A model generated the notes under the pieces. That model made no database searches and was not told the DNA's origin. It was given only the letters and a program-made list of their open reading frames with translations. Shown here one piece after another: positions 44,580 to 61,890 of a DNA stretch of 64,000 nucleotides. Location: NCBI GenBank assembly GCA_958348245.1, contig CATVYJ010000005.1, forward strand, positions 13,625 to 77,624. Direction: 5' to 3'. Numbering within the stretch: position 1 is the first letter of the stretch; each line of letters opens with the position of its first letter. The translations under genes and the position numbers were made by a program. The DNA is from an uncultured Veillonellaceae bacterium. Its GTDB lineage: Bacteria > Bacillota > Negativicutes > Veillonellales > Dialisteraceae.

Positions 44580-44637
44580 AAGGGGCGCTCCGGCGGGCGC
44601 TCTTTTTCATAGAACAACAAAGAAAGAAGGAATGACC

Positions 44638-45306
44638 ATGGGGAAAGGATTATTCATCACCGGCACCGATACGGACATCGGCAAGACCTACGTGACGGCG
44701 CTGCTCGTGAAGACGCTCCGCAGCGCGGGGTACGACGTGGGCTATTACAAGGCGGCCATCAGCGGGGCGGACTCCGTCGCGGAAAGCGACGCGGGCTTTG
44801 TAAACCGCTTCGCGCATATCGGCGAGCCGGAGGACATGCTCCTCTCGTATCTGTATAAAAACGCCGTGTCGCCCCATCTGGCGGCGCGCATCGAAGGGCA
44901 TCCCGTGGAGAAGGACGTGATTCTCGCGGGATGGCAGCGCGCGGCGGCGAAATATCCCTACGTCACCATGGAGGGGAGCGGCGGCATCTGCTGCCCCATC
45001 CGGCACGACGAGACCGCCGTGTACTACCTGGAGGATATCATCCGCTGGCTGCGCCTGCCCGTGCTCATCGTGGCCGACGCGGGCCTGGGCACCATCAATC
45101 ACGTGGCGCTGACCGCGTTTTATATGAAAGAGCGCGGCCTCACCGCGAAGGGCGTCCTCCTCAATAACTGGAAGGGCGGCCTCATGGAAGAAGACAATGT
45201 GAACATGATCGAGGAAATGACGGGCCTCCCCGTGCTGGCGAAAATCCGCCGGGGCGACACGGCGCTCGACGCGGACCCGGCGCTCCTGGCGTCGCTTTAC
45301 GAATGA
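44638..45306 (+). CDS. bioD: dethiobiotin synthetase
   Basis: MGKGLFITGTDTDIGKTYVTALL (P-loop), 223 aa. The start is the second ATG, after agaaagaagg. Confidence 0.85.
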   Translation: MGKGLFITGTDTDIGKTYVTALLVKTLRSAGYDVGYYKAAISGADSVAESDAGFVNRFAHIGEPEDMLLSYLYKNAVSPHLAARIEGHPVEKDVILAGWQRAAAKYPYVTMEGSGGICCPIRHDETAVYYLEDIIRWLRLPVLIVADAGLGTINHVALTAFYMKERGLTAKGVLLNNWKGGLMEEDNVNMIEEMTGLPVLAKIRRGDTALDADPALLASLYE

Positions 45307-45316
45307 GGAGGACAGC

Positions 45317-46687
45317 ATGGACGAAAAACAGACCTGGCCGGAGATCGACTGGGAAAAAGAGGATGAGAAATATATCTGGCACCCGGCGCAGCAGATGAAG
45401 GACGCGGAAGTCTTTCCGCCGGTGGTGATCGACCACGCGGAGGGGCTCTACCTGTACGACACGAAAGGGAAAGCCTATCTCGACATCATCAGCTCCTGGT
45501 GGTGCAATCTCCTCGGCCACTGCAACCCGGAGATCAACGAAGCCGTCAAGAAGCAGGTGGACGAGCTGGAGCACGTGATCTTCACGAATTTCTCCCACCG
45601 GCCCGCCATCGAGCTCTGCCGCGAGCTCGCGCCGCTCCTGCCGGAAGGGCTGTGCCGGTTCAGCTTCCACGACAACGGGTCTTCCGCGGTGGAAGCGGCC
45701 CTGAAGATGGCCTTCCAGTACCATTACCAGACGGGCCATCCCGAGCGGCAGCGCTTCATGTGCCTCGCCGACTCCTACCACGGCGAGACCATCGGCGCGC
45801 TCTCCGTGGGCGGCATGGACATGTACGCGAAGATTTATCAGCCCATGATGATGCACAACATCCATTTCGACGGGCTCGACTGCTTCCGCTGCCCCTACGG
45901 GAAGACCCGCGATACCTGCGCGTGCGAATGCTTCGAGAGCGCGGAGCAGGCCTTTGAGACATACGGGAAGCAGACCGCCGCGGTCATCGTGGAACCCATC
46001 CTGCAGGGCGCGGCGGGCATGCGCATCTATCCCGCGGAGTACCTCAGGAAACTCAGGAAGCTCTGCGACGCATACGGCGTCCTCCTGATCGACGACGAGA
46101 TCGCCGCGGGCTTCGGCCGCACGGGGAAACTCTTCGCCATCGAACACGCCGGCATCAGCCCGGACATTCTCTGCACCTCCAAAGGGCTCACCGGCGGATA
46201 CCTCCCCATGTCCATCACCATCACTACGGACAGGATTTACAACGCCTTCTACGACGACTACGGCACGCACAAAGCCTTCGTGCACAGCCATACCTACGCG
46301 GGCAATCCCATCGGCTGCGCCGCGGCGCTCGCCGTGCTGCGCATCCTGAAGCGCGACCATATCCTCGAGAAAGCCGCCGAAGTGGGCGTCTATCTCCATG
46401 AGGAGCTGGAGAAGGCCCTCGGCGGCCATCCGAATATGGGCGAGATCCGGCACATCGGCCTCATCAACGCCATGGAGCTCGTGGAAGACCGGAAGACGAA
46501 GAAGCCTTTTGATCCGAAGCGGCGCATCGGCTGGCAGATTTTCCGCCGCGCCATGGCCCGGGGCCTCGTGCTCCGTCCCATGGGGGATGTGATCTATTTC
46601 AACCCGCCTCTCACGCTCGATAAGGAAACGGCGAAGAAGGCGGTGGACCTCTGCCGGGAATCGGTGGAGGATGTGCTCGGAAAGTAA
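45317..46687 (+). CDS. bioA: adenosylmethionine-8-amino-7-oxononanoate aminotransferase
   Basis: 456 aa class-III aminotransferase, ...LLIDDEIAAGFGRTGKLFA... Confidence 0.85.
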   Translation: MDEKQTWPEIDWEKEDEKYIWHPAQQMKDAEVFPPVVIDHAEGLYLYDTKGKAYLDIISSWWCNLLGHCNPEINEAVKKQVDELEHVIFTNFSHRPAIELCRELAPLLPEGLCRFSFHDNGSSAVEAALKMAFQYHYQTGHPERQRFMCLADSYHGETIGALSVGGMDMYAKIYQPMMMHNIHFDGLDCFRCPYGKTRDTCACECFESAEQAFETYGKQTAAVIVEPILQGAAGMRIYPAEYLRKLRKLCDAYGVLLIDDEIAAGFGRTGKLFAIEHAGISPDILCTSKGLTGGYLPMSITITTDRIYNAFYDDYGTHKAFVHSHTYAGNPIGCAAALAVLRILKRDHILEKAAEVGVYLHEELEKALGGHPNMGEIRHIGLINAMELVEDRKTKKPFDPKRRIGWQIFRRAMARGLVLRPMGDVIYFNPPLTLDKETAKKAVDLCRESVEDVLGK

Positions 46688-46964: not shown

Positions 46965-46993
46965 TTGACAGGTAAAGCCGCCTCCCGTACAAT
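46965..46993 (+). promoter_or_regulatory. sigma70 promoter TTGACA-N17-TACAAT driving cassette 1
   Basis: ttgaca ggtaaagccgcctcccg tacaat gaaaac, in an AT-rich 0.5-kb intergenic region. Confidence 0.65.
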
Positions 46994-47030
46994 GAAAACG
47001 TGGTTATTGAGATTACGAAACTCAATCATC

Positions 47031-47070
47031 ATGTATTCTATGGTCAAAAAGGAGGATAGCAGATAAGACC
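47031..47070 (+). promoter_or_regulatory. conserved leader hairpin motif (copy 1) in the roughly 190-nt 5'UTR of cassette 1
   Basis: gtATTCTatGGTCaaAAAGGAGGatagcagataaGACCg. See the copies at 50211 and 58877. Confidence 0.4.
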
Positions 47071-47193
47071 GAAATTTGTAAGTAGTTATAAACTGCATGA
47101 TTTATGATATTGATAGAAAATGACGAGTAATGATTTATAATCATGTAGACTTATAACGAATGTACAAACTCAGTTAGAGGAGGATTTGTTATT

Positions 47194-48357
47194 ATGATGG
47201 ACACTCTGGCTCAGAACAGCCATCTGTTTGATGAACTGTTTCAGGGCGTATACGGCGTCGCGGACATCGGCATCCTGTCCATGTTCGTCATCGGCTTTAT
47301 CCTGATGTTCCTCGCCGTCAGATACGACTATGAACCGATGCTGCTCTTCCCGATGGGCGTCGGCTGTATTCTGGCCAACATCCCCGGTCACTATGCCGTA
47401 CTGCAGGAACCGGGCGCGGAAGGCTTCCTTTTCGTTCTCTACAAAGCAGGCATTGCCAATGAACTTTTCCCGGTCATGATCTTTATCGCCATCGGCGCGA
47501 TGTGCGAATTCAGCCCGCTTATGAGAAAACCCTACGTGATGTTCTTCGCGGCGGCTGCGCAGTTCGGTATCTTCATGACGGCGTTCCTCGCGGCGCTGGT
47601 AGGCTTCCCCTTCAACCAGGCGGCCTCCATCGGCATCATCGGCGCGGCTGACGGCCCGACCACCATTTTCGTCGCTTCCCGTTATGCGCAGGAAATGCTC
47701 GGACCGTTGTCCGTAGCGGCGTACTGCTACATGTCCCTCGTACCGGTCATCCAGCCCCCGATCATCAAGCTGCTCACCACGAAGAAAGAACGCCAGATCC
47801 GCATGCCCTTCACCGGCGACACCCCGGTATCTGACCGCGCTCTCTTCATTTTCCCGCTGATGATCGTCATGGTCGCCGGCATCGTGGCTCCCATGTCCGT
47901 ACCGCTCATCGGCGCCCTCATGTTCGGCAACCTGCTGAAAGTGTCCGGCTGCACGGATCAGCTCGCGAACTGCGCGAAGGATGACCTGTCCAACCTCGTC
48001 ACCCTGTTCCTCGGTCTGGTCGTAGGCTCCACCATGACGGCGGAAAACTTCCTGACCTTCGACGTGTTCAAGATCCTCTGCCTCGGCGCGGTGGCCTTCG
48101 TATTCGATACGGCAGGCGGCGTCCTCTTCGCAAAGATCCTGAACCTCTTCCTCGCGAAGAAGATCAACCCCATGATCGGCGCGTGCGGCATCTCCGCATT
48201 CCCCATGTCCGGCCGTGTTATCGCTAAAATGGCGCTGAAAGACGATCCCACGAACTTCATCGTGCAGGATGCCATCGGCGTCAACGTAGCCGGCCAGATC
48301 GCATCCGTCGTCGCAGGCGGTCTCGTTGTCTGCATGATTCCGATGCTGTCCAAGTAA
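47194..48357 (+). CDS. Na+-translocating decarboxylase beta subunit (OadB/GcdB/MmdB family), paralog A1
   Basis: 387 aa, ...AASIGIIGAADGPTTIFVASRYA...LVPVIQPPIIKLLTTKKERQIRM...FGNLLKVSG...KINPMIGACGISAFPMSGRV... These are the hallmark OadB motifs (compare AAAIGIIGGADGPTAIY, LIQPPIMKALTT..ERKIRM, INPLIGSAGVSAVPMAARV). Confidence 0.8.
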   Translation: MMDTLAQNSHLFDELFQGVYGVADIGILSMFVIGFILMFLAVRYDYEPMLLFPMGVGCILANIPGHYAVLQEPGAEGFLFVLYKAGIANELFPVMIFIAIGAMCEFSPLMRKPYVMFFAAAAQFGIFMTAFLAALVGFPFNQAASIGIIGAADGPTTIFVASRYAQEMLGPLSVAAYCYMSLVPVIQPPIIKLLTTKKERQIRMPFTGDTPVSDRALFIFPLMIVMVAGIVAPMSVPLIGALMFGNLLKVSGCTDQLANCAKDDLSNLVTLFLGLVVGSTMTAENFLTFDVFKILCLGAVAFVFDTAGGVLFAKILNLFLAKKINPMIGACGISAFPMSGRVIAKMALKDDPTNFIVQDAIGVNVAGQIASVVAGGLVVCMIPMLSK

Positions 48358-48372
48358 GGAGGCCTTTCATAC

Positions 48373-48492
48373 ATGGAACCGACAAGTGCAGCTCTTTTCC
48401 AGATGGTGGTCTGCGTACCGCTCATGTTCGTCGTCATCGGCATTTTCGTTCTGCTCACCAAGGGCCTGACGAAACTGTTCCCGGCGAAATAA
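48373..48492 (+). CDS. 39-aa single-TM peptide, OadG (gamma subunit) N-terminal-anchor-like. It is below the ORF-track size cutoff.
   Basis: MEPTSAALFQMVVCVPLMFVVIGIFVLLTKGLTKLFPAK, SD aaggagg 10 nt upstream. Compare the OadG N-terminus ...[41 protein letters not shown]. Confidence 0.6.
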   Translation: MEPTSAALFQMVVCVPLMFVVIGIFVLLTKGLTKLFPAK

Positions 48493-48630
48493 TCCGGCTG
48501 GAATTCTGAAACATTCGGAATGAGGGGGGCCCTCGAAAGCCTTCCGCGTCCCTCAAGGCGCGCTCCCGCCTTTCTTCCGGGAAAGCGCGGGAACACACCT
48601 CTTTTACCTGAAAAGGCGGTGTAAATCCCA
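48493..48630 (+). promoter_or_regulatory. conserved structured intercistronic spacer (nested hairpins + U-rich tail) between the mini-peptide gene and the Dcu gene. It is a candidate attenuator or RNA-processing site.
   Basis: gaggggggccctc, then cgcgcuCCCGccuuucuuCCGGGaaagcgcg, then acacaccucuuuuacc. It is about 95% identical to 51665-51804, more than the flanking coding DNA. Confidence 0.45.
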
Positions 48631-49941
48631 ATGGATATTTCGACTCCCGCTCTTGCCTCCATCATCGTACTGGTGGCAATCGTCGTATTCTCCTGCTTCC
48701 GCGATATCAACGTAGGTATCCTCGGCACGGCAGGGGGCCTTCTGGTCGGCATGATGTTTGCCGGCATGAAAATCAGCGAAGTCTACAAAGGCTGGCCGCT
48801 GTCCCTGTTCATGATCCTCGTGGGCGTTACGTTCATGTTCTCCGCCGCGCAGGTGAACGGCACCATGGAGAAATTCTCCGCGGTGTGCGTCCGTCTCGCC
48901 AAGGGCAACGTGGCTCTCATCCCGATCATTCTCTTCGTTCTCGTGACCTTCATCACCACCATCGGCCCCGGCAACATTGCCTCCACGGCCCTGATGGCTC
49001 CCATGTGCATGGCCATTGCAGGCCGCATCGGCCTCTCCCCGTTCTGCATGACGCTGCTCGTCGTCGGCGCGGCAAACGGCGCGGCCCTGTCTCCTTTCGC
49101 TCCGACCGGCATCATCTCCAACGGCCTCATCGCCCAGTGGGCGCCCCAGGTGGGCATCCCCACGGAGGAACTGTCCGGCATCGCCTGGAAGATTCACTGG
49201 AACTCTGAAATCGTACAGAGCGTCGTCAACTTCGGCGGCTTCTTCCTCACCGGCGGCCTCGCCTGGATGAGCAAGGCCAAGAGCGGCGGCGCGGACTTCG
49301 ACATCGACTCCATCGCTCCGAAGCCGGAACCCTTCGACTGGAAACAGAAGTACACCCTCTTCACGATGCTCGTCCTCGTGTGCGGCGTCATTTTCTTCAA
49401 ACTCGACGTAGGCATGCTCGCCTTCTGCATCGGCACCACCTTCATCCTCTTCAACATCGCGGATGACGGCGAAGCCGTGAAGAAAATGCCCTGGGGCGTC
49501 ATCGTCATGGTCTGCGGCATGTCCGTCCTGATCAACGTCATGGATAAGGCGGGCGGCCTGAACGCCCTCGTCGACATGATCGCCGTCGTATCCAACGGCA
49601 CGACCATCACCGGCGTCGTAGGCTTCATCGCGGGCCTGCTCTCCGCATACTCCAGCTCCTCCGGCGTCATCATGCCCATGTTCCTCAGCATGGTGCCGGG
49701 GCTCCTTGAAGCGGTGAATACCGTCGATGCGGACCACGCGGTCCGTCTGGCATCCGCCATCGACATCGGCGCTCACCTCGTCGATACGTCCCCGCTGTCC
49801 ACGCTGGGCGCGCTGTGCATCGCCAACGCGGTCACCGAAGACAAGGGCATTCTCTTCCGCAATCTGCTCCTGTGGGGGCTCTCCATGTCCGTCGTAGGCG
49901 GCGTCGTCTGCTACGTGGCCTTCGGTCTGCTCGGCCTGTAA
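48631..49941 (+). CDS. Dcu-family (DcuA/DcuB-like) anaerobic C4-dicarboxylate transporter, paralog B1
   Basis: 436 aa polytopic. It matches the DcuA/B N-terminal pattern (IIVLVAIVVFSCFRD.NVGILGTAGGLLVG versus DcuA VELIIVLLAIFLGARLGGIGIGFAGGLGV), a central ...TIGPGNIAS...LSPFAPTG, and the C-terminus. Confidence 0.6.
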   Translation: MDISTPALASIIVLVAIVVFSCFRDINVGILGTAGGLLVGMMFAGMKISEVYKGWPLSLFMILVGVTFMFSAAQVNGTMEKFSAVCVRLAKGNVALIPIILFVLVTFITTIGPGNIASTALMAPMCMAIAGRIGLSPFCMTLLVVGAANGAALSPFAPTGIISNGLIAQWAPQVGIPTEELSGIAWKIHWNSEIVQSVVNFGGFFLTGGLAWMSKAKSGGADFDIDSIAPKPEPFDWKQKYTLFTMLVLVCGVIFFKLDVGMLAFCIGTTFILFNIADDGEAVKKMPWGVIVMVCGMSVLINVMDKAGGLNALVDMIAVVSNGTTITGVVGFIAGLLSAYSSSSGVIMPMFLSMVPGLLEAVNTVDADHAVRLASAIDIGAHLVDTSPLSTLGALCIANAVTEDKGILFRNLLLWGLSMSVVGGVVCYVAFGLLGL

Positions 49942-49983
49942 GGCTGTCAACCGGACGCGGAAGAAAACAGACAGATGACAGAA

Positions 49984-50020
49984 AACTGGAAACGTACTTC
50001 GTGTCGTTTCCAGTTTTTTT
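49984..50020 (+). terminator. intrinsic terminator of cassette 1
   Basis: aactggaaacg tacttcgtgt cgtttccagtt ttttt. Confidence 0.7.
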
Positions 50021-50146
50021 GTGCGTAAAATAGACAGTGCAAATGATAACAAATCGTATATAAATCCGTCATTTCTCTATCCACGGAAACAACCATTTGT
50101 CAAATCGCATTTCTAAACCGGCCGGAGCGGGGGAAATCCCCTCTGA

Positions 50147-50175
50147 TTGACACCCAAAATGGCAAATCTTACAAT
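50147..50175 (+). promoter_or_regulatory. sigma70 promoter TTGACA-N17-TACAAT driving cassette 2
   Basis: ttgaca cccaaaatggcaaatct tacaat gaaacc. Confidence 0.6.
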
Positions 50176-50210
50176 GAAACCGTACTTATGGGCCACCAGA
50201 CCCGGCGTAC

Positions 50211-50250
50211 GCATTCTATGGTCGAAAAGGAGGGCAGCAGACAAGACCGA
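50211..50250 (+). promoter_or_regulatory. conserved leader hairpin motif (copy 2)
   Basis: gcATTCTatGGTCgaAAAGGAGGgcagcagacaaGACCg. Confidence 0.4.
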
Positions 50251-50371
50251 CAATGGCTGCGCGTTATAAACGCGTCTTTTATGAAGTCGATAGAATTACG
50301 GAAATGTCCTTCATGAAGACGAGAGAAAAATAACGGCGCGCAATATTTTCCTAAGAGGAGGAATTTTTAAC

Positions 50372-51532
50372 ATGGACACTCTGGCTCAGAACAGCGGTCT
50401 GTTTGACGAGCTTTTCCAGGGCATTTACGGACTGGCAGATGTGGGCATCCTCGCGATGTTCGTCGTCGGCTTCATCCTCATGTTCCTCGCCGTCAGATAC
50501 GACTATGAACCGATGCTGCTCTTCCCGATGGGCATCGGCTGCGTTCTTGCAAACATTCCCGGACACTACGCAGTGCTCCAGGATCCCGGAAGCGAAGGCT
50601 TCCTGTACGTTCTCTACAAAGCGGGTATCGCAAACGAACTTTTCCCGGTCATGATCTTTATCGCCATTGGTGCAATGTGCGAATTTGACCCGCTTATGAG
50701 AAAGCCGTTCGTCATGCTCTTCGCAGCAGCGGCTCAGTTCGGTATCTTCATGACTGCGTTCCTCGCGACGCTCCTCGGCTTCCCCTTCAACCAGGCGGCA
50801 GCCATCGGCATCATCGGCGCAGCTGACGGCCCGACCACGATCTTCGTCGCTTCCCGCTATGCGCAGGAAATGCTTGGACCGTTGTCCGTAGCGGCGTACT
50901 GCTACATGTCCCTCGTACCGGTTATTCAGCCTCCGATCATCAAACTGCTCACCACCAAACATGAACGCAAGATCCGTATGCCGTTCACCGGTGAAGCTCC
51001 GGTTTCTGATCGCGCACTCTTCATTTTCCCGCTGATGATCGTCATGGTCGCCGGCGTTGTAGCTCCTATTTCCGTACCGCTCATCGGCGCTCTCATGTTC
51101 GGCAACCTGCTGAAGGTATCCGGCTGCACCGACGACCTGGCAGACTGCGCGAAGGATGACCTGTCCAACCTCGTCACCCTGTTCCTCGGCCTGGTCGTAG
51201 GCTCCACCATGACGGCGGAAAACTTCCTGACCTTCGACGTATTCAAGATCCTCTGCCTCGGCGCGGTCGCATTCGTATTCGATACCGCCGGCGGCGTCAT
51301 CTTCGCGAAGATCGTCAATCTGTTCCTGACCAAGAAGATCAACCCGATGATCGGCGCATGCGGCATCTCCGCATTCCCGATGTCCGGCCGTGTTATCGCC
51401 AAGATGGCGCTGAAAGAAGATCCGACGAACTTCATCGTCCAGGATGCTATCGGCGTCAACGTAGCTGGTCAGATCGCCTCCGTTGTTGCCGGCGGCCTCG
51501 TGCTCTGCATGATCCCGCTGCTGTCTAAATAA
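50372..51532 (+). CDS. Na+-translocating decarboxylase beta subunit (OadB family), paralog A2
   Basis: 386 aa. About 85% identical to A1. From about residue 100 it is identical to A3 in protein and, over more than 600 bp, in DNA. Confidence 0.8.
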   Translation: MDTLAQNSGLFDELFQGIYGLADVGILAMFVVGFILMFLAVRYDYEPMLLFPMGIGCVLANIPGHYAVLQDPGSEGFLYVLYKAGIANELFPVMIFIAIGAMCEFDPLMRKPFVMLFAAAAQFGIFMTAFLATLLGFPFNQAAAIGIIGAADGPTTIFVASRYAQEMLGPLSVAAYCYMSLVPVIQPPIIKLLTTKHERKIRMPFTGEAPVSDRALFIFPLMIVMVAGVVAPISVPLIGALMFGNLLKVSGCTDDLADCAKDDLSNLVTLFLGLVVGSTMTAENFLTFDVFKILCLGAVAFVFDTAGGVIFAKIVNLFLTKKINPMIGACGISAFPMSGRVIAKMALKEDPTNFIVQDAIGVNVAGQIASVVAGGLVLCMIPLLSK

Positions 51533-51544
51533 GGAGGTCTTAGT

Positions 51545-51664
51545 ATGAATCCTGTAAGTGCAGCTCTTTTCCAGATGGTGGTCTGCGTACCGCTCATGTT
51601 CGTCGTTATCGGCGTTTTCGTTCTGCTCACCAAGGGCCTGACGAAAATGTTCCCGGCGAAATAA
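51545..51664 (+). CDS. 39-aa OadG-anchor-like mini-peptide (copy 2)
   Basis: MNPVSAALFQMVVCVPLMFVVIGVFVLLTKGLTKMFPAK, SD aaggagg. Confidence 0.6.
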   Translation: MNPVSAALFQMVVCVPLMFVVIGVFVLLTKGLTKMFPAK

Positions 51665-51804
51665 TCTGGCTGGAATTCTGAAACATTCGGAATGAGGGGG
51701 GCCCTCGAAAGCCTCCCGCGTCCCTCAAGGCGCGCTCCCGCGCTTTCTCACGGGAAGGCGCGGGAACACACCTCTTTTTACCTGAAAAGGTGGTGTAAAT
51801 CCCA

Positions 51805-53118
51805 ATGGATATTTCGACCCCGGCACTTGCCTCCATCATCGTACTGGTGGCAATCGTCCTGTTCTCCTGCTTCCGGGATATCAACGTAGGTATCCTCGGC
51901 ACCGCAGGCGGTCTGATTGTCGGCATGGTATTCTCCGGCATGAAGATCAATGAAGTCTACAAAGGCTGGCCGCTGTCCCTGTTCATGATCCTCGTCGGCG
52001 TAACGTTCATGTTCTCCGCCGCACAGGTTAACGGCACGATGGAGAAATTCTCCGCGATCTGCGTACGTCTTGCGAAAGCAAACATCCGCCTGATTCCGTT
52101 CATTCTGTTCTTCCTCGTGACCTTCATCACGACCATCGGCCCCGGCAACATCGCAACCACCGCTCTGATGGCTCCGATGTGCATGGCCATTGCAGGCCGT
52201 ATCGGCCTCTCCCCGTTCTGCATGACGCTGCTCGTAGTCGGCGCGGCAAACGGCGCGGCCTTCTCTCCTTTCGCTCCGACCGGCATCATTTCCAACGGCA
52301 TCATCGCCAGCTGGGCTCCGCAGGTCGGCATTCCTCAGGAAGCTCTTTCCGGTCTCGGCTGGAAGATTCACTGGAACTCTGAAATCGCTCAGGGCGTCGT
52401 CAACTTCGGCGGCTTCTTCCTGACCGGCGGCCTTGCCTGGATGGGCAAAGCCAAAGGCGGCGCGGACTTCGACATCGATTCCATCGCTCCGAAGCCGGAC
52501 GCATTTGACTGGAAGCAGAAGTACACCCTCTTCACGATGGTCGTACTGGTTGTAGGCGTTATCGCCTTCCACCTGGACGTAGGCATGCTTTCCTTCGTTA
52601 TCGGCACGACCTACATCCTCTTCAACATTGCTGACGACGGCGAAGCCGTAAAGAAAATGCCCTGGGGCGTCATCGTCATGGTCTGCGGTATGTCTGTCCT
52701 GATCAACGTCATGGATAAGGCAGGCGGCCTGAACGCTCTCATCGACATGATCGCCATCGTGTCCAACGGCACGACCATCAACGGCGTGGTCGGCTTCATC
52801 GCAGGTCTGATTTCCGCATACTCCAGCTCCTCCGGCGTTGTCATGCCGATGTTCCTGAACATGGTTCCCGGCCTGCTGCAGGCTGTGGGCACCTTTGATG
52901 CAGATCATGCGGTTCGTCTCGCATCCTCCATCAATATCGGCGCTCACCTCGTAGATACCTCCCCGCTGTCCACCCTCGGCGCGCTCTGCATTGCAAACGC
53001 GGCTGTAGACGACAAGGCGAAGGGCGTACTCTTCCGGAACCTCCTGTTCTGGGGTCTGTCCATGTCCGTCGTAGGCGCAGTGGTCTGCTACGTATTCTTC
53101 GGTCTGCTCGGCCTGTAA
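51805..53118 (+). CDS. Dcu-family C4-dicarboxylate transporter, paralog B2
   Basis: 437 aa, MDISTPALASIIVLVAIVLFSCFRDINVGILGTAGGLIVG... About 95% identical to B4, with 100% DNA-identical tracts. Confidence 0.6.
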   Translation: MDISTPALASIIVLVAIVLFSCFRDINVGILGTAGGLIVGMVFSGMKINEVYKGWPLSLFMILVGVTFMFSAAQVNGTMEKFSAICVRLAKANIRLIPFILFFLVTFITTIGPGNIATTALMAPMCMAIAGRIGLSPFCMTLLVVGAANGAAFSPFAPTGIISNGIIASWAPQVGIPQEALSGLGWKIHWNSEIAQGVVNFGGFFLTGGLAWMGKAKGGADFDIDSIAPKPDAFDWKQKYTLFTMVVLVVGVIAFHLDVGMLSFVIGTTYILFNIADDGEAVKKMPWGVIVMVCGMSVLINVMDKAGGLNALIDMIAIVSNGTTINGVVGFIAGLISAYSSSSGVVMPMFLNMVPGLLQAVGTFDADHAVRLASSINIGAHLVDTSPLSTLGALCIANAAVDDKAKGVLFRNLLFWGLSMSVVGAVVCYVFFGLLGL

Positions 53119-53142
53119 TCCTTTACAGCGCAGGCAGCTGAT

Positions 53143-53180
53143 AAAAAACACAGCTTTCTTCGGAAGGCTGTGTTTTTTTG
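53143..53180 (+). terminator. intrinsic terminator of cassette 2
   Basis: aaaaaacacagctttcttcggaaggctgtgtttttttg. Confidence 0.7.
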
Positions 53181-53194
53181 CGCGCCCGCGGCAA

Positions 53195-53460
53195 AGCGCG
53201 GCCCGGCATACAGAGAACAGAAAAGAAACGGACGGCGCGGGAAACGGAGGATGGAAAAGGAGAAAACGGAGACGGGAGAGGGCGGAGGCAGCCGGAAGCG
53301 GGGAGGAACGGAAACGAGGCGGGAAGCGCGGAGACCGGGAAAGGCGGAGGGCCCGCGCTTCCGCCCGGCGCTTCGATGAGGGCCGCGGACAAGGGGGCGG
53401 AGAACGGGTGTGCGGCCCTTCCGCGGCGGACGTCCGCAGAAGAGCGGGCAGGGAGAATAT
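53195..53460 (+). repeat. roughly 260-nt strongly purine-skewed (GA-rich) low-complexity tract
   Basis: acagagaacagaaaagaaacggacggcgcgggaaacggaggatggaaaaggagaaaacggagacgggagagggcggaggcagccggaagcggggaggaacggaaacgaggcgggaagcgcggagaccgggaaaggcggaggg... Almost no pyrimidines on the + strand. Confidence 0.6.
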
Positions 53461-53566
53461 AAATAAAAACTTTCGGAAAATACAAATAAAAAGAAAAAGA
53501 GAGCGCATCCGGAACGGCTATTAAAGAAATCTATAAGAGGACATGTCAAAATTCTTTCAAAATGAA

Positions 53567-53595
53567 TTGACTGTATAGACGGGCTTTGCTATGAT
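53567..53595 (+). promoter_or_regulatory. sigma70 promoter TTGACT-N17-TATGAT for the solitary Dcu gene B3
   Basis: ttgact gtatagacgggctttgc tatgat. Confidence 0.55.
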
Positions 53596-53774
53596 AGGCG
53601 GGCAATGCCCAAAACCGGCCAGTGTACCGTATGATACACACCGGAAAAGAAGACGGGCGAGCGGCGCAGTTTACAGATCTCATTCCTATTTTTCTTCCGC
53701 GCGCTCCCGCCTCGGGCAGGCAGCCGGTTCAGGCAGGGGACATCCCCGCCATTTCTCACGACGGACTCCGCATG

Positions 53775-53800
53775 GGCGGGCCCGCTTTCTTTTCAAGGTG
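53775..53800 (+). promoter_or_regulatory. hairpin + U-tract (attenuator-like) just upstream of the B3 RBS
   Basis: catgggcgggcccgctttcttttcaagg, then ggtggtgtaaag RBS. Confidence 0.4.
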
Positions 53801-53813
53801 GTGTAAAGTTTTA

Positions 53814-55127
53814 ATGGAAATTTCAACCCCGGCTCTTGCCTCCATCATCGTACTGGTGGCAATCGTCCTGTTTTCCTGCTTCCGGGATATCAACGTAGGT
53901 ATCCTCGGCACGGCAGGCGGTCTGCTGGTGGGCATGCTCTTCTCGGGCATGAAAATCAGCGAAGTCTACGAGGGCTGGCCTCTCAGCCTCTTCATGATCC
54001 TCGTGGGCGTGACGTTCATGTTCTCCTGCGCGCAGGTGAACGGCACCATGGAAAAATTCTCCGCGGTGTGCGTCCGTCTGGCCAAGGCGAATGTGGCGCT
54101 CATTCCGATCATCATGTTCCTGCTGACCACGTTCATCGTGACCATCGGCCCCGGCAACATTGCGGGCACGGCGCTCCTCGCGCCGGTCGCCATGGCGATC
54201 GCCGGCCGTATCGGCCTCTCCCCGTTCTGCATGACGCTGCTCGTGGTCGGCGCGGCAAACGGCGCGGCTTTCTCTCCTTTCGCACCGACGGGCATCATCT
54301 CCAACGGCATCATCGCCGGCTGGGCTCCGCAGGTAGGCATTCCGGCGGATCAGCTGGACAGCCTGGCCTGGAAAGTGCATTTCAACTCTGAAATCGCGCA
54401 GGGCATCGTCAACTTCGGCGGCTTCTTCCTCACGGGCGGCGCGGCATGGATGATGCGCGCCCGCAAAGACGCGAGCTTCGACATCGACTCCATCGCTCCG
54501 AAGCCGGGCGCTTTCGACTGGAAGCAGAAGTACACCCTTCTCACCATGGTCGTTCTCGTGGTGGGCGTCATTTTCTTCAAACTTGACGTAGGCATGCTCT
54601 CCTTCATCATCGGCACCACCTACATTCTCTTCAACATCGCCGACGACGGCGAAGCCGTGAAGAAAATGCCCTGGGGCGTCATCGTCATGGTCTGCGGTAT
54701 GTCTGTCCTGATCAACGTCATGGACCAGGCGGGCGGCCTGAACGCGCTCGTCCAGATGATCGCCGTCGTATCGAACGACACCACCGTGACCGGCGTGGTG
54801 GGCTTCATCTCCGGCCTCATCTCCGCGTACTCCAGCTCCTCCGGCGTCGTCATGCCCATGTTCCTCAACATGGTGCCCGGCCTGCTCGAAGCAGTGGGCA
54901 CGGTGGACGCGGACCATGCGATCCGTCTCGCTTCTTCCATCAACATCGGCTCCCACCTGGTGGATACGTCTCCGCTGTCCACGCTGGGCGCGCTCTGCAT
55001 CGCGAACGCCGCTGTAGACGACAAGGCGAAGGGCATCCTCTTCCGGAATCTGCTCTTCTGGGGCCTCTCCATGTCCATCGTGGGCGGCTTCGTGTGCTAC
55101 GTCGCATTCGGCCTGCTCGGCCTCTGA
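53814..55127 (+). CDS. Dcu-family C4-dicarboxylate transporter, paralog B3 (solitary, with no OadB partner)
   Basis: 437 aa, MEISTPALASIIVLVAIVLFSCFRDINVGILGTAGGLLVG... Internal start; the upstream part of the 501-aa track ORF is leader. Confidence 0.6.
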   Translation: MEISTPALASIIVLVAIVLFSCFRDINVGILGTAGGLLVGMLFSGMKISEVYEGWPLSLFMILVGVTFMFSCAQVNGTMEKFSAVCVRLAKANVALIPIIMFLLTTFIVTIGPGNIAGTALLAPVAMAIAGRIGLSPFCMTLLVVGAANGAAFSPFAPTGIISNGIIAGWAPQVGIPADQLDSLAWKVHFNSEIAQGIVNFGGFFLTGGAAWMMRARKDASFDIDSIAPKPGAFDWKQKYTLLTMVVLVVGVIFFKLDVGMLSFIIGTTYILFNIADDGEAVKKMPWGVIVMVCGMSVLINVMDQAGGLNALVQMIAVVSNDTTVTGVVGFISGLISAYSSSSGVVMPMFLNMVPGLLEAVGTVDADHAIRLASSINIGSHLVDTSPLSTLGALCIANAAVDDKAKGILFRNLLFWGLSMSIVGGFVCYVAFGLLGL

Positions 55128-55156
55128 TATCCATGTATAGTGCCTGAACCGCACGC

Positions 55157-55185
55157 AACCGCAGCCATGCCGGCTGCGGTTTTTG
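55157..55185 (+). terminator. intrinsic terminator after B3
   Basis: aaccgcagcc atgcc ggctgcggtt tttg. Confidence 0.65.
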
Positions 55186-55354
55186 CGTGCGCGGGAAAAG
55201 CGGGCGGCGCGGTATAATAGAGAAAAAGGCGGACGGGCCGGCCCCGGAAGCCTTCGGGCGGGCGTTCGCGGGCATGACCGGGAACGTCCGCGCCATGGAA
55301 GCGCGCGGGCGGGATTTTCCTGCGGGCCGCGGGCGGCATCGGGAGGGAAGAGGG

Positions 55355-55846
55355 ATGACGGTGGAAATCATTCCCGGCTGGGAACGGCCGGACGACGTGC
55401 GGGCGCTTTTTGCGGAGTATACGGCGCTGCTCGTTCGCGGGGACCCGGCGTTTGCCGGCTATCTGGAATTGCAGAAGTACGACGACGAGCTGAAACATCT
55501 GCGCCGGAAATACGGACCGCCCGCGGGGCGTCTCTATGCGGCGTATGCGGACGGCGCACCCGCCGGATGCGCCGCCCTGAAGCCGATCGACGGCGCATCG
55601 TGCGAATTGAAGCGGCTCTATGTGCGGCCTGCGTACCGCGGAAACCGTCTCGGCCGCCTTCTCGTGGAGCGGATTCTCGAGGACGCCCGGACCATCGGGT
55701 ATGCGGCGGTCTATCTGGATACGCTTCCCTTCCTGCGGGACGCGATCCGCCTGTACCGGCAGTGCGGATTCCGGGACGTCCCCAAATGGAACGACAGCCC
55801 CATGGAGGCGGCTCTTTATATGAAACTGGATTTGGAGGATATATAA
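55355..55846 (+). CDS. GNAT-family N-acetyltransferase
   Basis: MTVEIIPGWERPDDV...ELKRLYVRPAYRGNRLGRLLVERILEDARTIGYAAVYLDT (acetyl-CoA binding Q/RxxGxG/A motif). Confidence 0.75.
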   Translation: MTVEIIPGWERPDDVRALFAEYTALLVRGDPAFAGYLELQKYDDELKHLRRKYGPPAGRLYAAYADGAPAGCAALKPIDGASCELKRLYVRPAYRGNRLGRLLVERILEDARTIGYAAVYLDTLPFLRDAIRLYRQCGFRDVPKWNDSPMEAALYMKLDLEDI

Positions 55847-55898
55847 ATAAGAAAAAATAGAGAAACCGCCGGAGCGGCGGAGGAAGGAGGGGCAGACG

Positions 55899-56573
55899 AT
55901 GGAAGCCTTTGCGGCGGGCGGGAAAACCGTGACGCTCTATCCGGCGGATGCGGCGGACGCGCCGGTGCTGGTCCTGCCCGTGTACGATGGAGACGGGGCG
56001 GACGTGGCGCAGGCCCTCGCCGGGCGGCAGGCTCCGCCGGCGCATCTCGCCGTGATCGGCGGCCTCGACTGGGGCGGGGACATGACGCCCTGGCCGTGCC
56101 CGCCGCTCTCGAGATATGACGCGCCCTGTACGGGCGGGGCGGACCGTTGTCTCGCCGGGCTGACGGAGCGCATCCTTCCCGAAGCGGAGCGCCGCATGGG
56201 CGCGCGGCCCTGCTGGCGGGGGATCGCGGGGTATTCGCTGGCGGGGCTCTTCGCGCTCTACGCGCTGTACCGGACGGACGTCTTTTCCCGCGCGGCATCC
56301 GTGTCGGGCTCGCTCTGGTTTCCCCGCTTTCTGGAATACGCGGAGACGCATGCCATGGCTGCAAAGCCTTCGCGGGTCTATTTCTCGCTGGGCGGACGGG
56401 AAGCGCGCACGCGCCATCCCCTGATGAAGACGGTGCAGGCGCGGACGGAGGCCGTGGAGCGCCTCTTCCGTGCGCGCGGGGCGGAGACGGTTTTTGTGCA
56501 GAACCGGGGCGGCCATTTCACCGATCCCGCGGGGCGCACGGCGGCGGGCATCGACTGGCTGCTGCGCGGGTAG
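55899..56573 (+). CDS. alpha/beta-hydrolase esterase (putative-esterase family)
   Basis: ...WRGIAGYSLAGLFALYA (GxSxG nucleophile elbow), 224 aa. Confidence 0.6.
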   Translation: MEAFAAGGKTVTLYPADAADAPVLVLPVYDGDGADVAQALAGRQAPPAHLAVIGGLDWGGDMTPWPCPPLSRYDAPCTGGADRCLAGLTERILPEAERRMGARPCWRGIAGYSLAGLFALYALYRTDVFSRAASVSGSLWFPRFLEYAETHAMAAKPSRVYFSLGGREARTRHPLMKTVQARTEAVERLFRARGAETVFVQNRGGHFTDPAGRTAAGIDWLLRG

Positions 56574-56753
56574 CATTGGAGCGGGAGGAAACGGGAACGG
56601 AAGAGCCTTGCCGGAGGAGGCGGAGACCTTTGCGGGTTTCCGCTTTTTGCATGCGCGTTCCGCATTGTACGGCGGCGGGGCGGTGTGATATAATGCACGG
56701 CGTCTCTGTCTTGAAGAGACGGTATATATAAGTAGACAGAAAGAGGGGACGCA

Positions 56754-57695
56754 ATGATTCGGAATATTCCTGTACCGGCGGCGGGGGTCATGCTCGGGCT
56801 GGCCGCGCTGGGGCATCTGCTGGCGCCGTACGGCCTGCCGCTCAAATATCTCTGCGGCGTGTGCGCGCTGTTTCTGGGGCTGCTTCTGCTGGCCCGCGCG
56901 GCGCGCTATCCGCGGGCGCTTCTGCAGGATCTGAACGGCAGCTCCGTCCTGGGGAGCGTGGCCGCCACGTTTTTCATGGCGTGGGTGCAGCTCGCAGCCT
57001 ATGCCGCGCCGTTTGCGCCGGGCGCGGGGCATGCGCTGTGGCTGGCTGCGGCGGCGGGCCATACGGCGCTCATGGGATGGTTTACGGCGCGCTATCTGCG
57101 CAGGCCCGCGCTGCGCGACGTGTTTCCCACCTATTTCATCGCCTACGTGGGGCTCATCGCGGCGTCGGTCACCGCGCCGGCTTTTGGCGAAGAGGCGCTG
57201 GGCGCGTGGATTTTCCGCTTCGGGTTCGCGGCGTATGTGGCGCTCTTCGTGCTCGTCACCGTGCGCTATCTGAAAGAGAGGGACATCCCCGAGCCGGCGC
57301 GGCCTCTCTTCTGCATTTACGCCGCGCCCATGAGCCTGTCGCTCGCGGGGTATCTCGCGTGCATGCCGGAGAAATCGACGGAGGCGGTGCTGCTCATGGC
57401 GGGGCTCGCGCAGATTTTCTACGCGGTGGTGATCGTCCGCCTGCCCGGCCTGCTCCGCCTGCCTTTCTATCCGAGCTATGCGGCCTTTACCTTTCCCTGC
57501 GTGATTTCCGCGGCGGCGCTCCGGCAGGCGCTGATGCATCTGGACGGCGCGGGCGTGGCGGTGCCGGCGGCGTATCATCTGCTGGCGGAAGCGGAAACGG
57601 CGGTGGCCGCGGCGGTCGTCTTCTATGTGTTCGCCCGGTACCTGCATTTCCTGTTCCGCCGCGCTCCGGCGCGGGCCGCTGAGGGGGCGGCGTAA
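56754..57695 (+). CDS. TDT-family transporter (TehA/Mae1-like C4-dicarboxylate / tellurite-resistance transporter)
   Basis: 313 aa, 10-TM profile, MIRNIPVPAAGVMLGLAALGHLLAPYG... typical of TehA/TDT proteins. Confidence 0.6.
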   Translation: MIRNIPVPAAGVMLGLAALGHLLAPYGLPLKYLCGVCALFLGLLLLARAARYPRALLQDLNGSSVLGSVAATFFMAWVQLAAYAAPFAPGAGHALWLAAAAGHTALMGWFTARYLRRPALRDVFPTYFIAYVGLIAASVTAPAFGEEALGAWIFRFGFAAYVALFVLVTVRYLKERDIPEPARPLFCIYAAPMSLSLAGYLACMPEKSTEAVLLMAGLAQIFYAVVIVRLPGLLRLPFYPSYAAFTFPCVISAAALRQALMHLDGAGVAVPAAYHLLAEAETAVAAAVVFYVFARYLHFLFRRAPARAAEGAA

Positions 57696-57700
57696 ACATT

Positions 57701-57754
57701 CCCAAATAAAAAAGAACGGACGCGTGACGGCGTATCCGTTCTTTTTTATTTGGG
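57701..57754. terminator. bidirectional terminator (near-perfect palindrome with A/T-runs on both sides)
   Basis: cccaaataaaaaagaacggacgcgtgacggcgtatccgttcttttttatttggg. Confidence 0.7.
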
Positions 57755-57758
57755 ACGT

Positions 57759-58598
57759 TTATTTTTCTTTCGGCAGGGCCGCTGTCTGCGCGGCGTCCGT
57801 GCCCTCTTCGGAGGACGGTTCCGCTTCGGCTGCGGGGACCGCGCCGCTTTCTCCGGCGTCTGCTGCCGGCGCTTCCGCGGCTTCGCCGGTCTCCGGCGCT
57901 TGTGCTGCGGCTTCATTCACCGGTTCCGCCTCATGGGCCGCCGGATGGGCGGTCGGTTTTTCCGTGTCCTCTGCGGCGGCGTCCTTCGCTTCTTCCGCGG
58001 CGAGCGCGGCGGCTTCCGCCTTCTTCGCGCGGTTGCGGTTCTTCTTCTGCTCCGCGCCGCTGATGTAATGGAACGCGTGCTTCAGCACTTCATTCTGGGA
58101 GACGCGGATGCGTCCGGGCACGCGCTTTTCAAATTCTTCCCAGAATTCGTCCGACGCTTTCATGAGCACCCGGGAGACCTTGTCCGTGCCGGGCATATTG
58201 TATACGAGCGACCAGATGTCCCGCTTGTCCAGATTGCCGTACATGCGGTACGTGTGCCGGTAGGAGATCGCCTTGATGGGCTCCACCTTGAAATGGAAGG
58301 CCCCGTCCATGGCGCTGTAGGGGATGGCCATTTTCCGTGTGCGGAAGAGCGACGCCTTGATGATGACCAGCTCTTTCGCGTGGAGTTCGTATGTGGTGCG
58401 GGTGAGCGTCATGCTCAGGAGGAAGAGCAGGAGCAGCGCTTCCGTGAGAATGTCCAGCCACGGCATCTGATGATTGTTGTAGATATACCGCACCGTCATC
58501 ATCACATACCCCAGGAGGCAGATGCCCAGCGTGCCGTAGACGTACATGTACGTGCGGTGCACTTCGGAGCGTTCCGTTACGATTTTTTCTTCCTTCAT
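57759..58598 (-). CDS. hypothetical membrane protein with an acidic Ala/Glu-rich low-complexity C-terminal tail
   Basis: 279 aa, MKEEKIVTERSEVHRTYMYVYGTLGICLLGYVMMTVRYIY...; tail ...AEEAKDAAAEDTEKPTAHPAAHEAEPVNEAAAQAPETGEAAEAPAADAGE... Confidence 0.5.
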   Translation of the reverse strand: MKEEKIVTERSEVHRTYMYVYGTLGICLLGYVMMTVRYIYNNHQMPWLDILTEALLLLFLLSMTLTRTTYELHAKELVIIKASLFRTRKMAIPYSAMDGAFHFKVEPIKAISYRHTYRMYGNLDKRDIWSLVYNMPGTDKVSRVLMKASDEFWEEFEKRVPGRIRVSQNEVLKHAFHYISGAEQKKNRNRAKKAEAAALAAEEAKDAAAEDTEKPTAHPAAHEAEPVNEAAAQAPETGEAAEAPAADAGESGAVPAAEAEPSSEEGTDAAQTAALPKEK

Positions 58599-58806
58599 AG
58601 AGACTCCTTTGATTCGCAGAATATACGGGAAATATACAGACCTATTTTACACCAAAACCATGAATAAATCATAACAAAATGAGCAATAAAAAATGTAACA
58701 GAAAATCTACAGAATAAAACGATCAAGTTACTGTAAGATAAAATATAAACTGGAGCGTTAGAGAAAAAAGAGACATGCAATATTATCTAAACAAAAATAT
58801 TTCATA

Positions 58807-58835
58807 TTGACGAAGAAAAGTTTAGCGATTAGAAT
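58807..58835 (+). promoter_or_regulatory. sigma70 promoter TTGACG-N17-TAGAAT driving cassette 4
   Basis: ttgacg aagaaaagtttagcgat tagaat, in an AT-rich 0.4-kb intergenic region. Confidence 0.6.
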
Positions 58836-58876
58836 CGAGGCATGACAGGGTGTACGGACCCCGTACGCCCCGCCGC

Positions 58877-58916
58877 ATTCTCAGCCGGAAAGGAGGACAG
58901 TGGGTCAGGCTGGAAT
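58877..58916 (+). promoter_or_regulatory. conserved leader hairpin motif (copy 3, with compensatory stem change)
   Basis: gcATTCTcAGCCggAAAGGAGGacagtgggtcaGGCTgg. The stem AGCC/GGCT replaces GGTC/GACC of copies 1 and 2. Confidence 0.4.
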
Positions 58917-59033
58917 TTCATCCCGGGCGCTCCGGCGGAACCCATCAATCCAAAACTTGCAAAATCACAAATCCTGTTTCCGCAGGGGAAGAGGGGATGA
59001 AAGAAATATCTTTCTTCATAAGGAGGACTTATC

Positions 59034-60194
59034 ATGGATATGTTGGCACAGAATAGCCAGCTGTTTGACGAGCTTTTCCAGGGCGTGTACGGACTGGCCG
59101 ACGTCGGCGTGCTGTCGATGTTTGTCGTAGGCTTCATCCTCATGTTCCTCGCCGTCAAATACGATTATGAACCGGTCCTGCTGTTCCCGATGGGCATCGG
59201 ATGCATTCTTGCAAACATCCCGGGCCATTACGCAGTACTCCAGGATCCCGGAAGCGAAGGCTTCCTGTATGTGCTTTATCAGGCGGGTGTCGCAAACGAA
59301 CTTTTCCCGGTCATGATTTTTATCGCCATTGGTGCAATGTGCGAATTTGACCCGCTGATGAGAAAGCCTTTCGTCATGCTCTTCGCAGCAGCCGCTCAGT
59401 TTGGTATCTTCATGACCGCGTTCCTCGCGACGCTCCTCGGCTTCCCCTTCAACCAGGCGGCGGCTATCGGCATCATCGGCGCGGCTGACGGCCCGACCAC
59501 GATCTTCGTCGCTTCCCGCTATGCGCAGGAAATGCTTGGACCGTTGTCCGTAGCGGCGTACTGCTACATGTCCCTCGTACCGGTTATTCAGCCTCCGATC
59601 ATCAAACTGCTCACCACCAAACATGAACGCAAGATCCGTATGCCGTTCACCGGTGAAGCTCCGGTTTCTGATCGCGCACTCTTCATTTTCCCGCTGATGA
59701 TCGTCATGGTCGCCGGCGTTGTAGCTCCTATTTCCGTACCGCTCATCGGCGCTCTCATGTTCGGCAACCTGCTGAAGGTATCCGGCTGCACCGACGACCT
59801 GGCAGACTGCGCGAAGGATGACCTGTCCAACCTCGTCACCCTGTTCCTCGGCCTGGTCGTAGGCTCCACCATGACGGCGGAAAACTTCCTGACCTTCGAC
59901 GTATTCAAGATCCTCTGCCTCGGCGCGGTCGCATTCGTATTCGATACCGCCGGCGGCGTCATCTTCGCGAAGATCGTCAATCTGTTCCTGACCAAGAAGA
60001 TCAACCCGATGATCGGCGCATGCGGCATCTCCGCATTCCCGATGTCCGGCCGTGTTATCGCCAAGATGGCGCTGAAAGAAGATCCGACGAACTTCATCGT
60101 CCAGGATGCTATCGGCGTCAACGTAGCTGGTCAGATCGCATCGGTCGTTGCAGGCGGCCTCGTCCTCTGCATGATCCCGATGCTTATGCAGTGA
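59034..60194 (+). CDS. Na+-translocating decarboxylase beta subunit (OadB family), paralog A3
   Basis: 386 aa, MDMLAQNSQLFDELFQGVYGLADVGVLSMFVVGFILMFLAVKYDYEP... The 3' two-thirds are identical to A2. Confidence 0.8.
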   Translation: MDMLAQNSQLFDELFQGVYGLADVGVLSMFVVGFILMFLAVKYDYEPVLLFPMGIGCILANIPGHYAVLQDPGSEGFLYVLYQAGVANELFPVMIFIAIGAMCEFDPLMRKPFVMLFAAAAQFGIFMTAFLATLLGFPFNQAAAIGIIGAADGPTTIFVASRYAQEMLGPLSVAAYCYMSLVPVIQPPIIKLLTTKHERKIRMPFTGEAPVSDRALFIFPLMIVMVAGVVAPISVPLIGALMFGNLLKVSGCTDDLADCAKDDLSNLVTLFLGLVVGSTMTAENFLTFDVFKILCLGAVAFVFDTAGGVIFAKIVNLFLTKKINPMIGACGISAFPMSGRVIAKMALKEDPTNFIVQDAIGVNVAGQIASVVAGGLVLCMIPMLMQ

Positions 60195-60209
60195 TTGGAG
60201 GGATAAGTT

Positions 60210-60329
60210 ATGAATCCAGTAGCAGCATCCCTTTTCCAGATGGTGGTATGCGTACCGCTGATGTTCCTGGTCATCCTCATTTTCGTGGGTCTCACGAAGC
60301 TCCTCACGAAGATGTTCCCCGCAGAATAA
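60210..60329 (+). CDS. 39-aa OadG-anchor-like mini-peptide (copy 3)
   Basis: MNPVAASLFQMVVCVPLMFLVILIFVGLTKLLTKMFPAE, SD ggaggg. Confidence 0.6.
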   Translation: MNPVAASLFQMVVCVPLMFLVILIFVGLTKLLTKMFPAE

Positions 60330-60424
60330 TTCTGCCCGATCCTTTATTTTCCACATAAAGGCGTGCCCCCGTATCCGCGAGGGTGCGGGGACCCACCTCT
60401 TCCATGCAAAGGTGGTGTAAACCA

Positions 60425-61738: not shown

Positions 61739-61783
61739 GATAGAACGCGGCAGTGTCGGAAGCGCAGGCTTCTGAATGCGCGG

Positions 61784-61820: not shown

Positions 61821-61890
61821 GTGCGCGGAAAACGGGCGCGGCGGCGGTGCGCCCGCGTGCGGGGCAATAAAAAAAGACCGGAGCGTCCGG

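Follow-up and report, generated by a model that had tools for sequence, protein, structure and literature searches.

Three paralogous cassettes in the analyzed window, a 64-kb stretch of DNA from an uncultured Veillonellales bacterium (Negativicutes), are each preceded by a leader in which a short hairpin (P2) presents a strong SD-like sequence, AAAGGAGG, in its loop, far upstream of the SD that serves the first gene. A further hairpin (P1) lies at or close to the predicted 5' end, and where the leader is of the copy 1 or copy 2 type, P2 is followed by a long hairpin (P3). We tentatively interpret this arrangement as a 5' mRNA stabilizer of the STAB-SD (SD-mimic) type, in which a 30S subunit would dock at the upstream site without initiating, assisted by a 5' end that is blocked. 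This is the reading that we prefer, with a confidence that stays somewhat below even.

Each cassette consists of oadB, a small ORF and matC. The three oadB genes (OAD_beta; copy 1 at 47194-48357 on the + strand, copy 2 at 50372-51532, copy 3 at 59034-60194) encode proteins that are ~91% identical to one another, and the closest OadB match in a genome scan showed 98% identity and belongs to a Veillonellaceae MAG. The matC genes encode dicarboxylate carriers of the MatC/CitMHS type and are located at 48631-49941, 51805-53118 and 60383-61738 in cassettes 1, 2 and 3, respectively; a fourth carrier gene stands alone near 53814-55127. Between oadB and matC lies a 39-codon hydrophobic ORF, MEPTSAALFQMVVCVPLMFVVIGIFVLLTKGLTKLFPAK (48373-48492, 51545-51664 and 60210-60329), which is kept in every cassette and in all related operons at a length of 38-43 aa. 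It has no Pfam match and may represent an OadG-like small subunit. The cassette is present three times within positions 47194-63153 of the window and at least three times in tandem at locus L161, in both cases without an adjoining carboxyltransferase or biotin-carrier gene, and at locus L164 a family III CoA-transferase gene is the first gene of the oadB-matC operon. Directly 5' of cassette 1 (44632-46687) are a dethiobiotin-synthetase-like gene (AAA_26, bioD-like) and a class III aminotransferase gene (bioA-like), so that biotin synthesis genes are found beside genes for subunits of a biotin-dependent decarboxylase. Elsewhere in the window, a cluster of three tRNA genes occupies 30040-30273.

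The original prediction placed a strong promoter about 190 nt upstream of each oadB, and near-consensus promoters were indeed located in all three copies, on the + strand like all leader features described below. Copies 1 and 2 share TTGACA-17-TACAAT (46965-46993, with 11 of 12 consensus matches, and 50147-50175), whereas copy 3 has TTGACG-17-TAGAAT (58807-58835). Transcription starts, predicted from the sigma-70-type promoter consensus, fall at ~47000, ~50182 and ~58842, which gives leaders of 195, 191 and 193 nt. The true SD of copy 1, AGAGGAGGA, occupies 47176-47184 upstream of the oadB start codon at 47194 (the feature as a whole spans 47176-47196), and that of copy 3, AAGGAGG, has its GGAGG at 59022-59026 and the start codon at 59034 (feature 59019-59036). 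In the window copies the true SD lies ~150 nt 3' of the SD-like sequence in P2, hereafter the decoy SD. The folding energies of the whole leaders are ordinary, with z-scores of -0.6 to -1.5. Upstream of copy 2, ~30-55 bp 5' of the -35 box, the sequence CCATTTGTCAAATCGCATTTCTAAACC (50093-50119) was noticed, which is conserved 5' of the copy 2-type promoters of loci L001 and L002 and could be a transcription-factor site.

Direct reading of the DNA confirmed a hairpin with an SD-like loop in all three oadB leaders. Together with the bases that precede it, the hairpin reads GTATTCTA-TGGTC-AAAAAGGAGGATAGCAGATAA-GACCG in copy 1 (47033-47071), GCATTCTA-TGGTC-GAAAAGGAGGGCAGCAGACAA-GACCG in copy 2 (50211-50249) and GCATTCT-CAGCC-GGAAAGGAGGACAGTGGGTCA-GGCTG in copy 3 (58875-58912). 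In copy 1 the linker GUAUUCUA (47033-47040) precedes P2 (47041-47071), whose stem is formed by UGGUC (47041-47045) and GACCG (47067-47071), with the decoy SD AAAGGAGG at 47048-47055. P2 of copy 2 (50219-50249) has the same stem, UGGUC/GACCG, and its decoy SD at 50226-50233, and P2 of copy 3 (58882-58912) carries the compensatory variant CAGCC/GGCUG with the decoy SD at 58889-58896. The loop is 21 nt long, purine-rich and contains AAAGGAGG in all three window copies. The spacer from AAAGGAGG to the 3' arm of the stem, originally given as 14 nt, measures only 11 nt, and the stem, put at 4-5 bp, reaches 5 bp with the outer U.G or C-G pair included. Compared to copies 1 and 2, the stem of copy 3 differs at pair 1 (U.G to C-G), pair 2 (G-C to A-U) and pair 4 (U-A to C-G). 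The last two of these changes alter both sides and keep the pairing, as expected of the compensatory change that had been proposed for this copy.

For comparison, genomes and metagenomes were each scanned once for OadB, which yielded 160 loci. The metagenome part added only three close loci, which indicates that the clade is rare and that the power to detect covariation is low. The leaders of 21 homologous oadB-small ORF-matC operons, down to 76% OadB identity, were analyzed. According to the covariance model described below, a recognizable P2 motif occurs only at an OadB identity of at least 88%. The loci that bear it are L001 and L002 (two copies each), L003, and L081 and L082 (two each, one shared), and the motif is represented by 11 distinct sequences. 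Four other close leaders, L004a, L004b, L005 and L015, have quite different sequences in the same layout, i.e. a promoter, a 5' hairpin and a short hairpin around a GGAG-rich run. A protein search and contig look-ups located the same operon at 76-84% OadB identity in L161, L164, L165, L168 and L170. The leaders of these more distant operons are unalignable to those of the window, and each has a strong SD-like purine run without a start codon; beyond the clade of at least 88% OadB identity, conservation is limited to this run. OadB homologues of ~70% identity are mostly encoded 3' of a biotin-carrier gene, as in classical methylmalonyl-/glutaconyl-CoA decarboxylase operons, and have no such leader.

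A covariance model of P2 was built from ten hairpins, and every position of the 64-kb window was scored with it. Exactly three sites were found, with E-values of 3e-13 to 3e-8, and the next match had an E-value of 0.1. The alignment of homologous leaders that had been suggested as a check showed structure-preserving double changes in two of the five P2 pairs and a single-side change in one pair, while the stem is 100% paired across the 11 distinct alignable sequences; in slid controls, pairing falls to 0-53%. The covariation is real but thin, reflecting perhaps two events. In leaders beyond the alignable ones, other stems are found around similar loops (UGGCC/GGCCG, AGCCC/GGGCU, GCAC/GUGC, GACCG/CGGUC, GUCG/CGAC and AACU/AGUU), and the 21 homologous leaders contain at least seven different stem sequences around an SD-like loop. 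In local folds the SD-like core is unpaired in a hairpin loop in 14 of the 21 leaders, compared to 4.9 expected from shuffled flanks. The complete pairing, the covarying pairs and the different stems of the distant leaders sustain the earlier claim of a functional RNA structure and argue that P2 is under selection as RNA.

P1 extends from the predicted +1 in copy 1 (47000-47032). In copy 2 the 5'-terminal hairpin (50182-50210) is unrelated in sequence to that of copy 1, and in copy 3 it is GC-rich (58848-58870, -17.5 kcal/mol) and begins 6 nt past the predicted 5' end. All 15 close leaders have a hairpin 0-6 nt from the predicted 5' end; the sequences of these hairpins are unrelated, with no conserved nucleotides across the 15 leaders. 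P3 is ~90 nt long and encloses most of the AU-rich remainder of the leader. It lies 3' of P2 in eight leaders, which belong to the copy 1 or copy 2 type (group A/B). It is a long imperfect hairpin with the base GUUAUAA/UUAUAAC in copy 1 (47077-47164) and a long hairpin at approximately 50254-50344 in copy 2. In these eight leaders 18 of 31 predicted pairs survive a double change in at least one sequence, both the outer and the inner helices covary, and the base GUUAUAA/UUAUAAC is invariant. A terminator-like hairpin (50259-50275) lies within the 5' arm of P3 in copy 2, where it competes with the P3 base; neither copy 1 nor copy 3 has it, and it is not a conserved feature of the eight group A/B leaders.

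The decoy SD was then compared with the 3' end of 16S rRNA. The window contains no 16S gene and a canonical anti-SD was assumed, with which the AGGAGG-type true SDs of the window genes agree. All 21 leaders have an upstream site with a duplex energy of -11.5 to -16.8 kcal/mol. In 20 of them its predicted binding strength equals or exceeds that of the true SD, and in the remaining one the two are near equal. The true SDs are also strong (-11 to -13 kcal/mol). Most of the 15 close leaders have just two strong anti-SD sites, the P2 loop and the true SD. In the 15 leaders whose promoter is clear, the decoy keeps a fixed position, +38 to +49 relative to the predicted 5' end. Among the more distant leaders, 71-199 nt separate it from the ATG. 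For most leaders dinucleotide shuffles yield a site of that strength in 0-10% of trials; for the weakest ones, L005, L015 and L004b, shuffles match it in 20-40%. Neither an ATG, GTG or TTG 5-12 nt 3' of the decoy SD nor a conserved ORF after it is present in the 15 close leaders. Variants of the site, among them AAAGGGGG and AAGGGGAG, still pair with CCUCCUUU through G.U pairs. Since complementarity to the 16S 3' end is all that survives in the distant leaders, the comparison indicates that the ribosomal anti-SD is the partner that explains the conservation. Within the window, a scan of intergenic GGAGG sequences located no other clear startless site of the AAAGGAGG type, except for an ambiguous one on the minus strand at ~7466, and a window-wide scan for anti-SD complementarity was uninformative, with hundreds of matches in GC-rich coding sequence.

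The leaders thus possess both determinants of an SD-mimic 5' stabilizer, a hairpin at the 5' end and a strong SD that lacks a start codon, and in addition a hairpin that buries the spacer, and it is on this basis that they are read as such elements. From these observed features we infer that a 30S subunit would pair through its 16S 3' end with the P2 loop and stay there without initiating, that the docked subunit would block 5'-to-3' decay by RNase J, and that the half-life of the message would increase. An exoribonuclease of the RNase J type, acting in the 5'-3' direction, is expected in Bacillota. P1 would hinder attack that depends on the 5' end and P3 would take away single-stranded endonuclease targets, and the outcome would be a long-lived oadB-small ORF-matC transcript. 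Perhaps the three-hairpin 5' UTR also aids ribosome loading. Of the cis-regulatory options that were initially offered for these leaders, a decoy ribosome-binding site fits best, whereas the riboswitch lost ground for lack of an Rfam match and a conserved aptamer. Constitutive stabilization is a simpler reading than the proposed control of the operon by the leader. Two features speak against a stabilizer: the P3 base is invariant without an evident reason, and the accessibility of the decoy is uneven, with unpaired probabilities of 0.07-0.93 predicted in full-leader ensembles.

An established element of this kind is the STAB-SD of cry3A, with the sequence GAAAGGAGG. Like the site in the oadB leaders, it is an SD-like sequence in a 5' UTR that is complementary to the 16S 3' end and does not direct initiation. 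In Bacillus thuringiensis cry3A it is located >100 nt 5' of the start codon, where the 30S subunit that it binds halts RNase J1 (Agaisse & Lereclus 1996; Mathy et al. 2007; reviewed in PMC4113751). In contrast to cry3A, the SD-like run of the oadB leaders usually lies in the loop of a short covarying hairpin and is flanked by a 5'-terminal hairpin and a long 3' hairpin; moreover, the host is an uncultured Veillonellales bacterium (Negativicutes), and the stabilizing role of its leaders is predicted from sequence. STAB-SD-like motifs have also been reported in the 5' UTRs of Listeria monocytogenes inlA, inlC and uhpT, where, as in the oadB leaders, the SD mimic is found just 3' of the transcription start and far 5' of the initiation site; the accessible part of that article describes no hairpin presentation, and organisms and genes are unrelated to those studied here (PMC5449094). 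Further 5' stabilizers, the polypurine sequence of phage SP82 and the leaders of B. subtilis aprE, ermC and gsiB, appear in the reference list of PMC3997798 (Hue et al. 1995; Hambraeus et al. 2002; Sharp & Bechhofer 2003). They rely on a 5' stem-loop or a purine-rich ribosome-binding sequence and stabilize without translation. The 21-nt polypurine tract of the P2 loop resembles the SP82-type stabilizers. In aprE and gsiB, however, the stabilizing site is the gene's own ribosome-binding site, whereas the oadB decoy is a separate site ~150 nt from the start.

The principle of SD-mimic stabilizers is already known, while the element itself is absent from Rfam, and literature searches turned up no description of such a leader for Veillonella or Negativicutes. 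If the stabilizer reading is true, SD-mimic 5' stabilizers reach from Bacillus and Listeria to gut diderm Firmicutes (Negativicutes) and would have a modular design, in which a capped 5' hairpin is combined with a decoy SD that a hairpin displays and with an AU-rich spacer that is buried. This design might find use as an expression part in Veillonella-type hosts. For annotators it would mean that an SD in the loop of a conserved, covarying hairpin 5' of transporter genes is not necessarily the mark of a riboswitch. A long-standing question is not opened by the finding.

Two further observations that speak against the stabilizer are those on which the most durable alternative draws. The linker GYAUUCUA and the loop positions after the SD (..GCAGAAAA) are conserved in the close clade, beyond what 30S docking obviously needs and past the SD core, and within the 64-kb window the motif is limited to these operons, to which a general stabilizer need not be restricted. 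Conservation past the core and confinement to one operon type, as for a regulon signal, both in the window with its three paralogous cassettes and elsewhere, would suit a P2 loop that is the target of a trans-acting regulator, either a C/U-rich sRNA or a protein that binds GGA loops (CsrA-like), by which the cassettes would be turned up or down together. A precedent is the B. subtilis sRNA RoxS, which reportedly acts at a 5' end and blocks 5'-3' exonucleolytic mRNA decay (PMC5419742). The survival of nothing but 16S 3'-end complementarity in the distant leaders points instead to the ribosome as partner, and we regard a trans-acting regulator as unlikely.

The same holds for the protein version of this alternative. 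A GGA in a hairpin loop combined with a second GGA in the true SD resembles the targets of CsrA, and like CsrA/RsmA hairpins the oadB leaders have a GGA in the loop of a short hairpin and another in the true SD. This combination is present in all three window copies, but it is unavoidable for any SD-like sequence, and the size of the loop is atypical. The 21-nt loops are far longer than the ~6-8 nt of typical CsrA hairpins, and the conserved part is the full 16S-complementary AAAGGAGG. In Firmicutes, CsrA is generally associated with flagellar genes, which are not known from Veillonellaceae, and this would also argue against it.

The decoy might instead serve as a standby or loading site that captures a 30S subunit on the nascent leader and raises translation or its coupling to transcription, with decay not being the main effect. 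A strong SD in a purine-rich unstructured loop without a start codon would be suited to this purpose, and the true SD is predicted to be partly structured in several leaders, with unpaired probabilities of 0.03-0.26 in L081a, L081b, L004a, L168 and others. However, the decoy lies ~150 nt from the start codon with the stable 90-nt P3 in between, a long way for a subunit to slide or be handed over. Moreover, the true SDs are strong in their own right, and such a site leaves the 5'-terminal hairpin unexplained. We consider this function quite doubtful.

Less probable again is a combined arrangement, in which P1-P2-P3 would form a clade-specific regulatory RNA of Veillonellales and modulated occupancy of the decoy, by the 30S subunit versus an sRNA or protein, would co-regulate the oadB-matC cassettes according to the supply of Na+ or dicarboxylate. 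If true, this improbable scheme would be a mechanism of a new kind, in which operons are controlled through a ribosome decoy.

A riboswitch, with P1, linker and P2 as an aptamer for Na+, dicarboxylate or biotin and P3 as the expression platform, was suggested by the setting. A Na+-pumping decarboxylase subunit together with a dicarboxylate carrier is a context typical of ion or metabolite riboswitches, the leader is long, structured and conserved in length, and the terminator-like hairpin of copy 2 competes with the base of P3. The leaders do not support this idea in other respects. Their conserved core is the SD-like purine run only, P1 is without conserved nucleotides, no multi-helix junction is present, and the terminator-like element is missing from copies 1 and 3 and unconserved in the eight group A/B leaders. 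Searches of Rfam 15 found no leader match at the gathering score (window and 13 loci) or at E<=10 (12 kb; isolated leader), and no conserved aptamer was seen beyond the clade of at least 88% OadB identity. An anti-SD element able to sequester the true SD is lacking as well: CCUCC does not occur in the copy 1 leader by direct reading, and the consensus fold contains no alternative pairing with the true SD. The likeness to the Na+ riboswitch (DUF1646 motif) and the Li+ riboswitch (nhaA-I motif) consists only in the context of a gene for a Na+-translocating membrane protein; in contrast to these riboswitches, the oadB leaders show neither Rfam similarity nor a conserved aptamer core. A riboswitch is thus very improbable. 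Equally hard to credit is an element without current function, with leader similarity inherited from recent cassette duplication and an incidental hairpin, because, despite the paralogy of the cassettes (~91% OadB identity), the narrow alignable clade and the perhaps two covariation events, P1 and P3 have diverged nearly fully between copies 1 and 2 with pairing kept while the P2 region is ~90% identical, and unalignable leaders at 76-84% OadB identity still have a strong SD-like site, often in a hairpin loop.

Several other candidates were rejected or set aside. The only recurrent ATG, located 5' of the decoy at ~+40, opens a short frame through P2 in group A/B leaders, but this putative leader peptide has no SD, its frame is missing from copy 3 and L003, and the differences between copies alter the amino acid. 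An attenuator was discarded as the terminator-like hairpin occurs in copy 2 alone. In the minimum-energy fold of copy 1 the P2 loop pairs with the spacer that belongs to the true ribosome-binding site, an interaction that the copy 2 sequence, inspected by eye, does not support. The decoy SD could form an 8-bp duplex with CACCUCUUUU, located 5' of matC, but a comparison by hand showed that the local hairpin of this element with the matC SD is longer. A DNA operator with an inverted repeat was dismissed by reasoning: conservation would be expected of operator half-sites, but those found here, with 21 nt between them, covary.

Beyond these operons, homologues of ~70-75% OadB identity from other gut bacteria, which are without matC, share another conserved motif in their leaders, UUUCCUGCGUAUGGCACAGGGGUAGGAAA, with a strong intrinsic terminator after it. 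The motif lies roughly 100-200 nt 5' of the oadB homologue and was found at L166 (2800-2900), L084, L087, L088, L091, L092, L094, L097-L105, L167 and L169. It corresponds to no Rfam family, with only weak, terminator-driven matches, and looks like an undescribed attenuator or riboswitch candidate for genes of Na+-decarboxylase beta subunits.

Two observations concern the carrier genes of the window. A very purine-rich stretch of ~250 nt with repeats of the GGA/GGAG type (53200-53460) lies between the carrier gene of copy 2 and the promoter that serves the fourth carrier gene. In addition, a conserved, GC-rich and structured spacer is located 5' of each matC-like gene (48492-48630, 51665-51804, ~53690-53813 and 60330-60425). 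In three of the four copies a hairpin at its 3' end pairs ACACCUC(U)UUU, which mimics the 16S 3' end, with the matC SD AAAAGGYGGUGU, and in the fourth copy the pairing with the SD is weaker. This hairpin suggests translational repression or coupling of the carrier gene.
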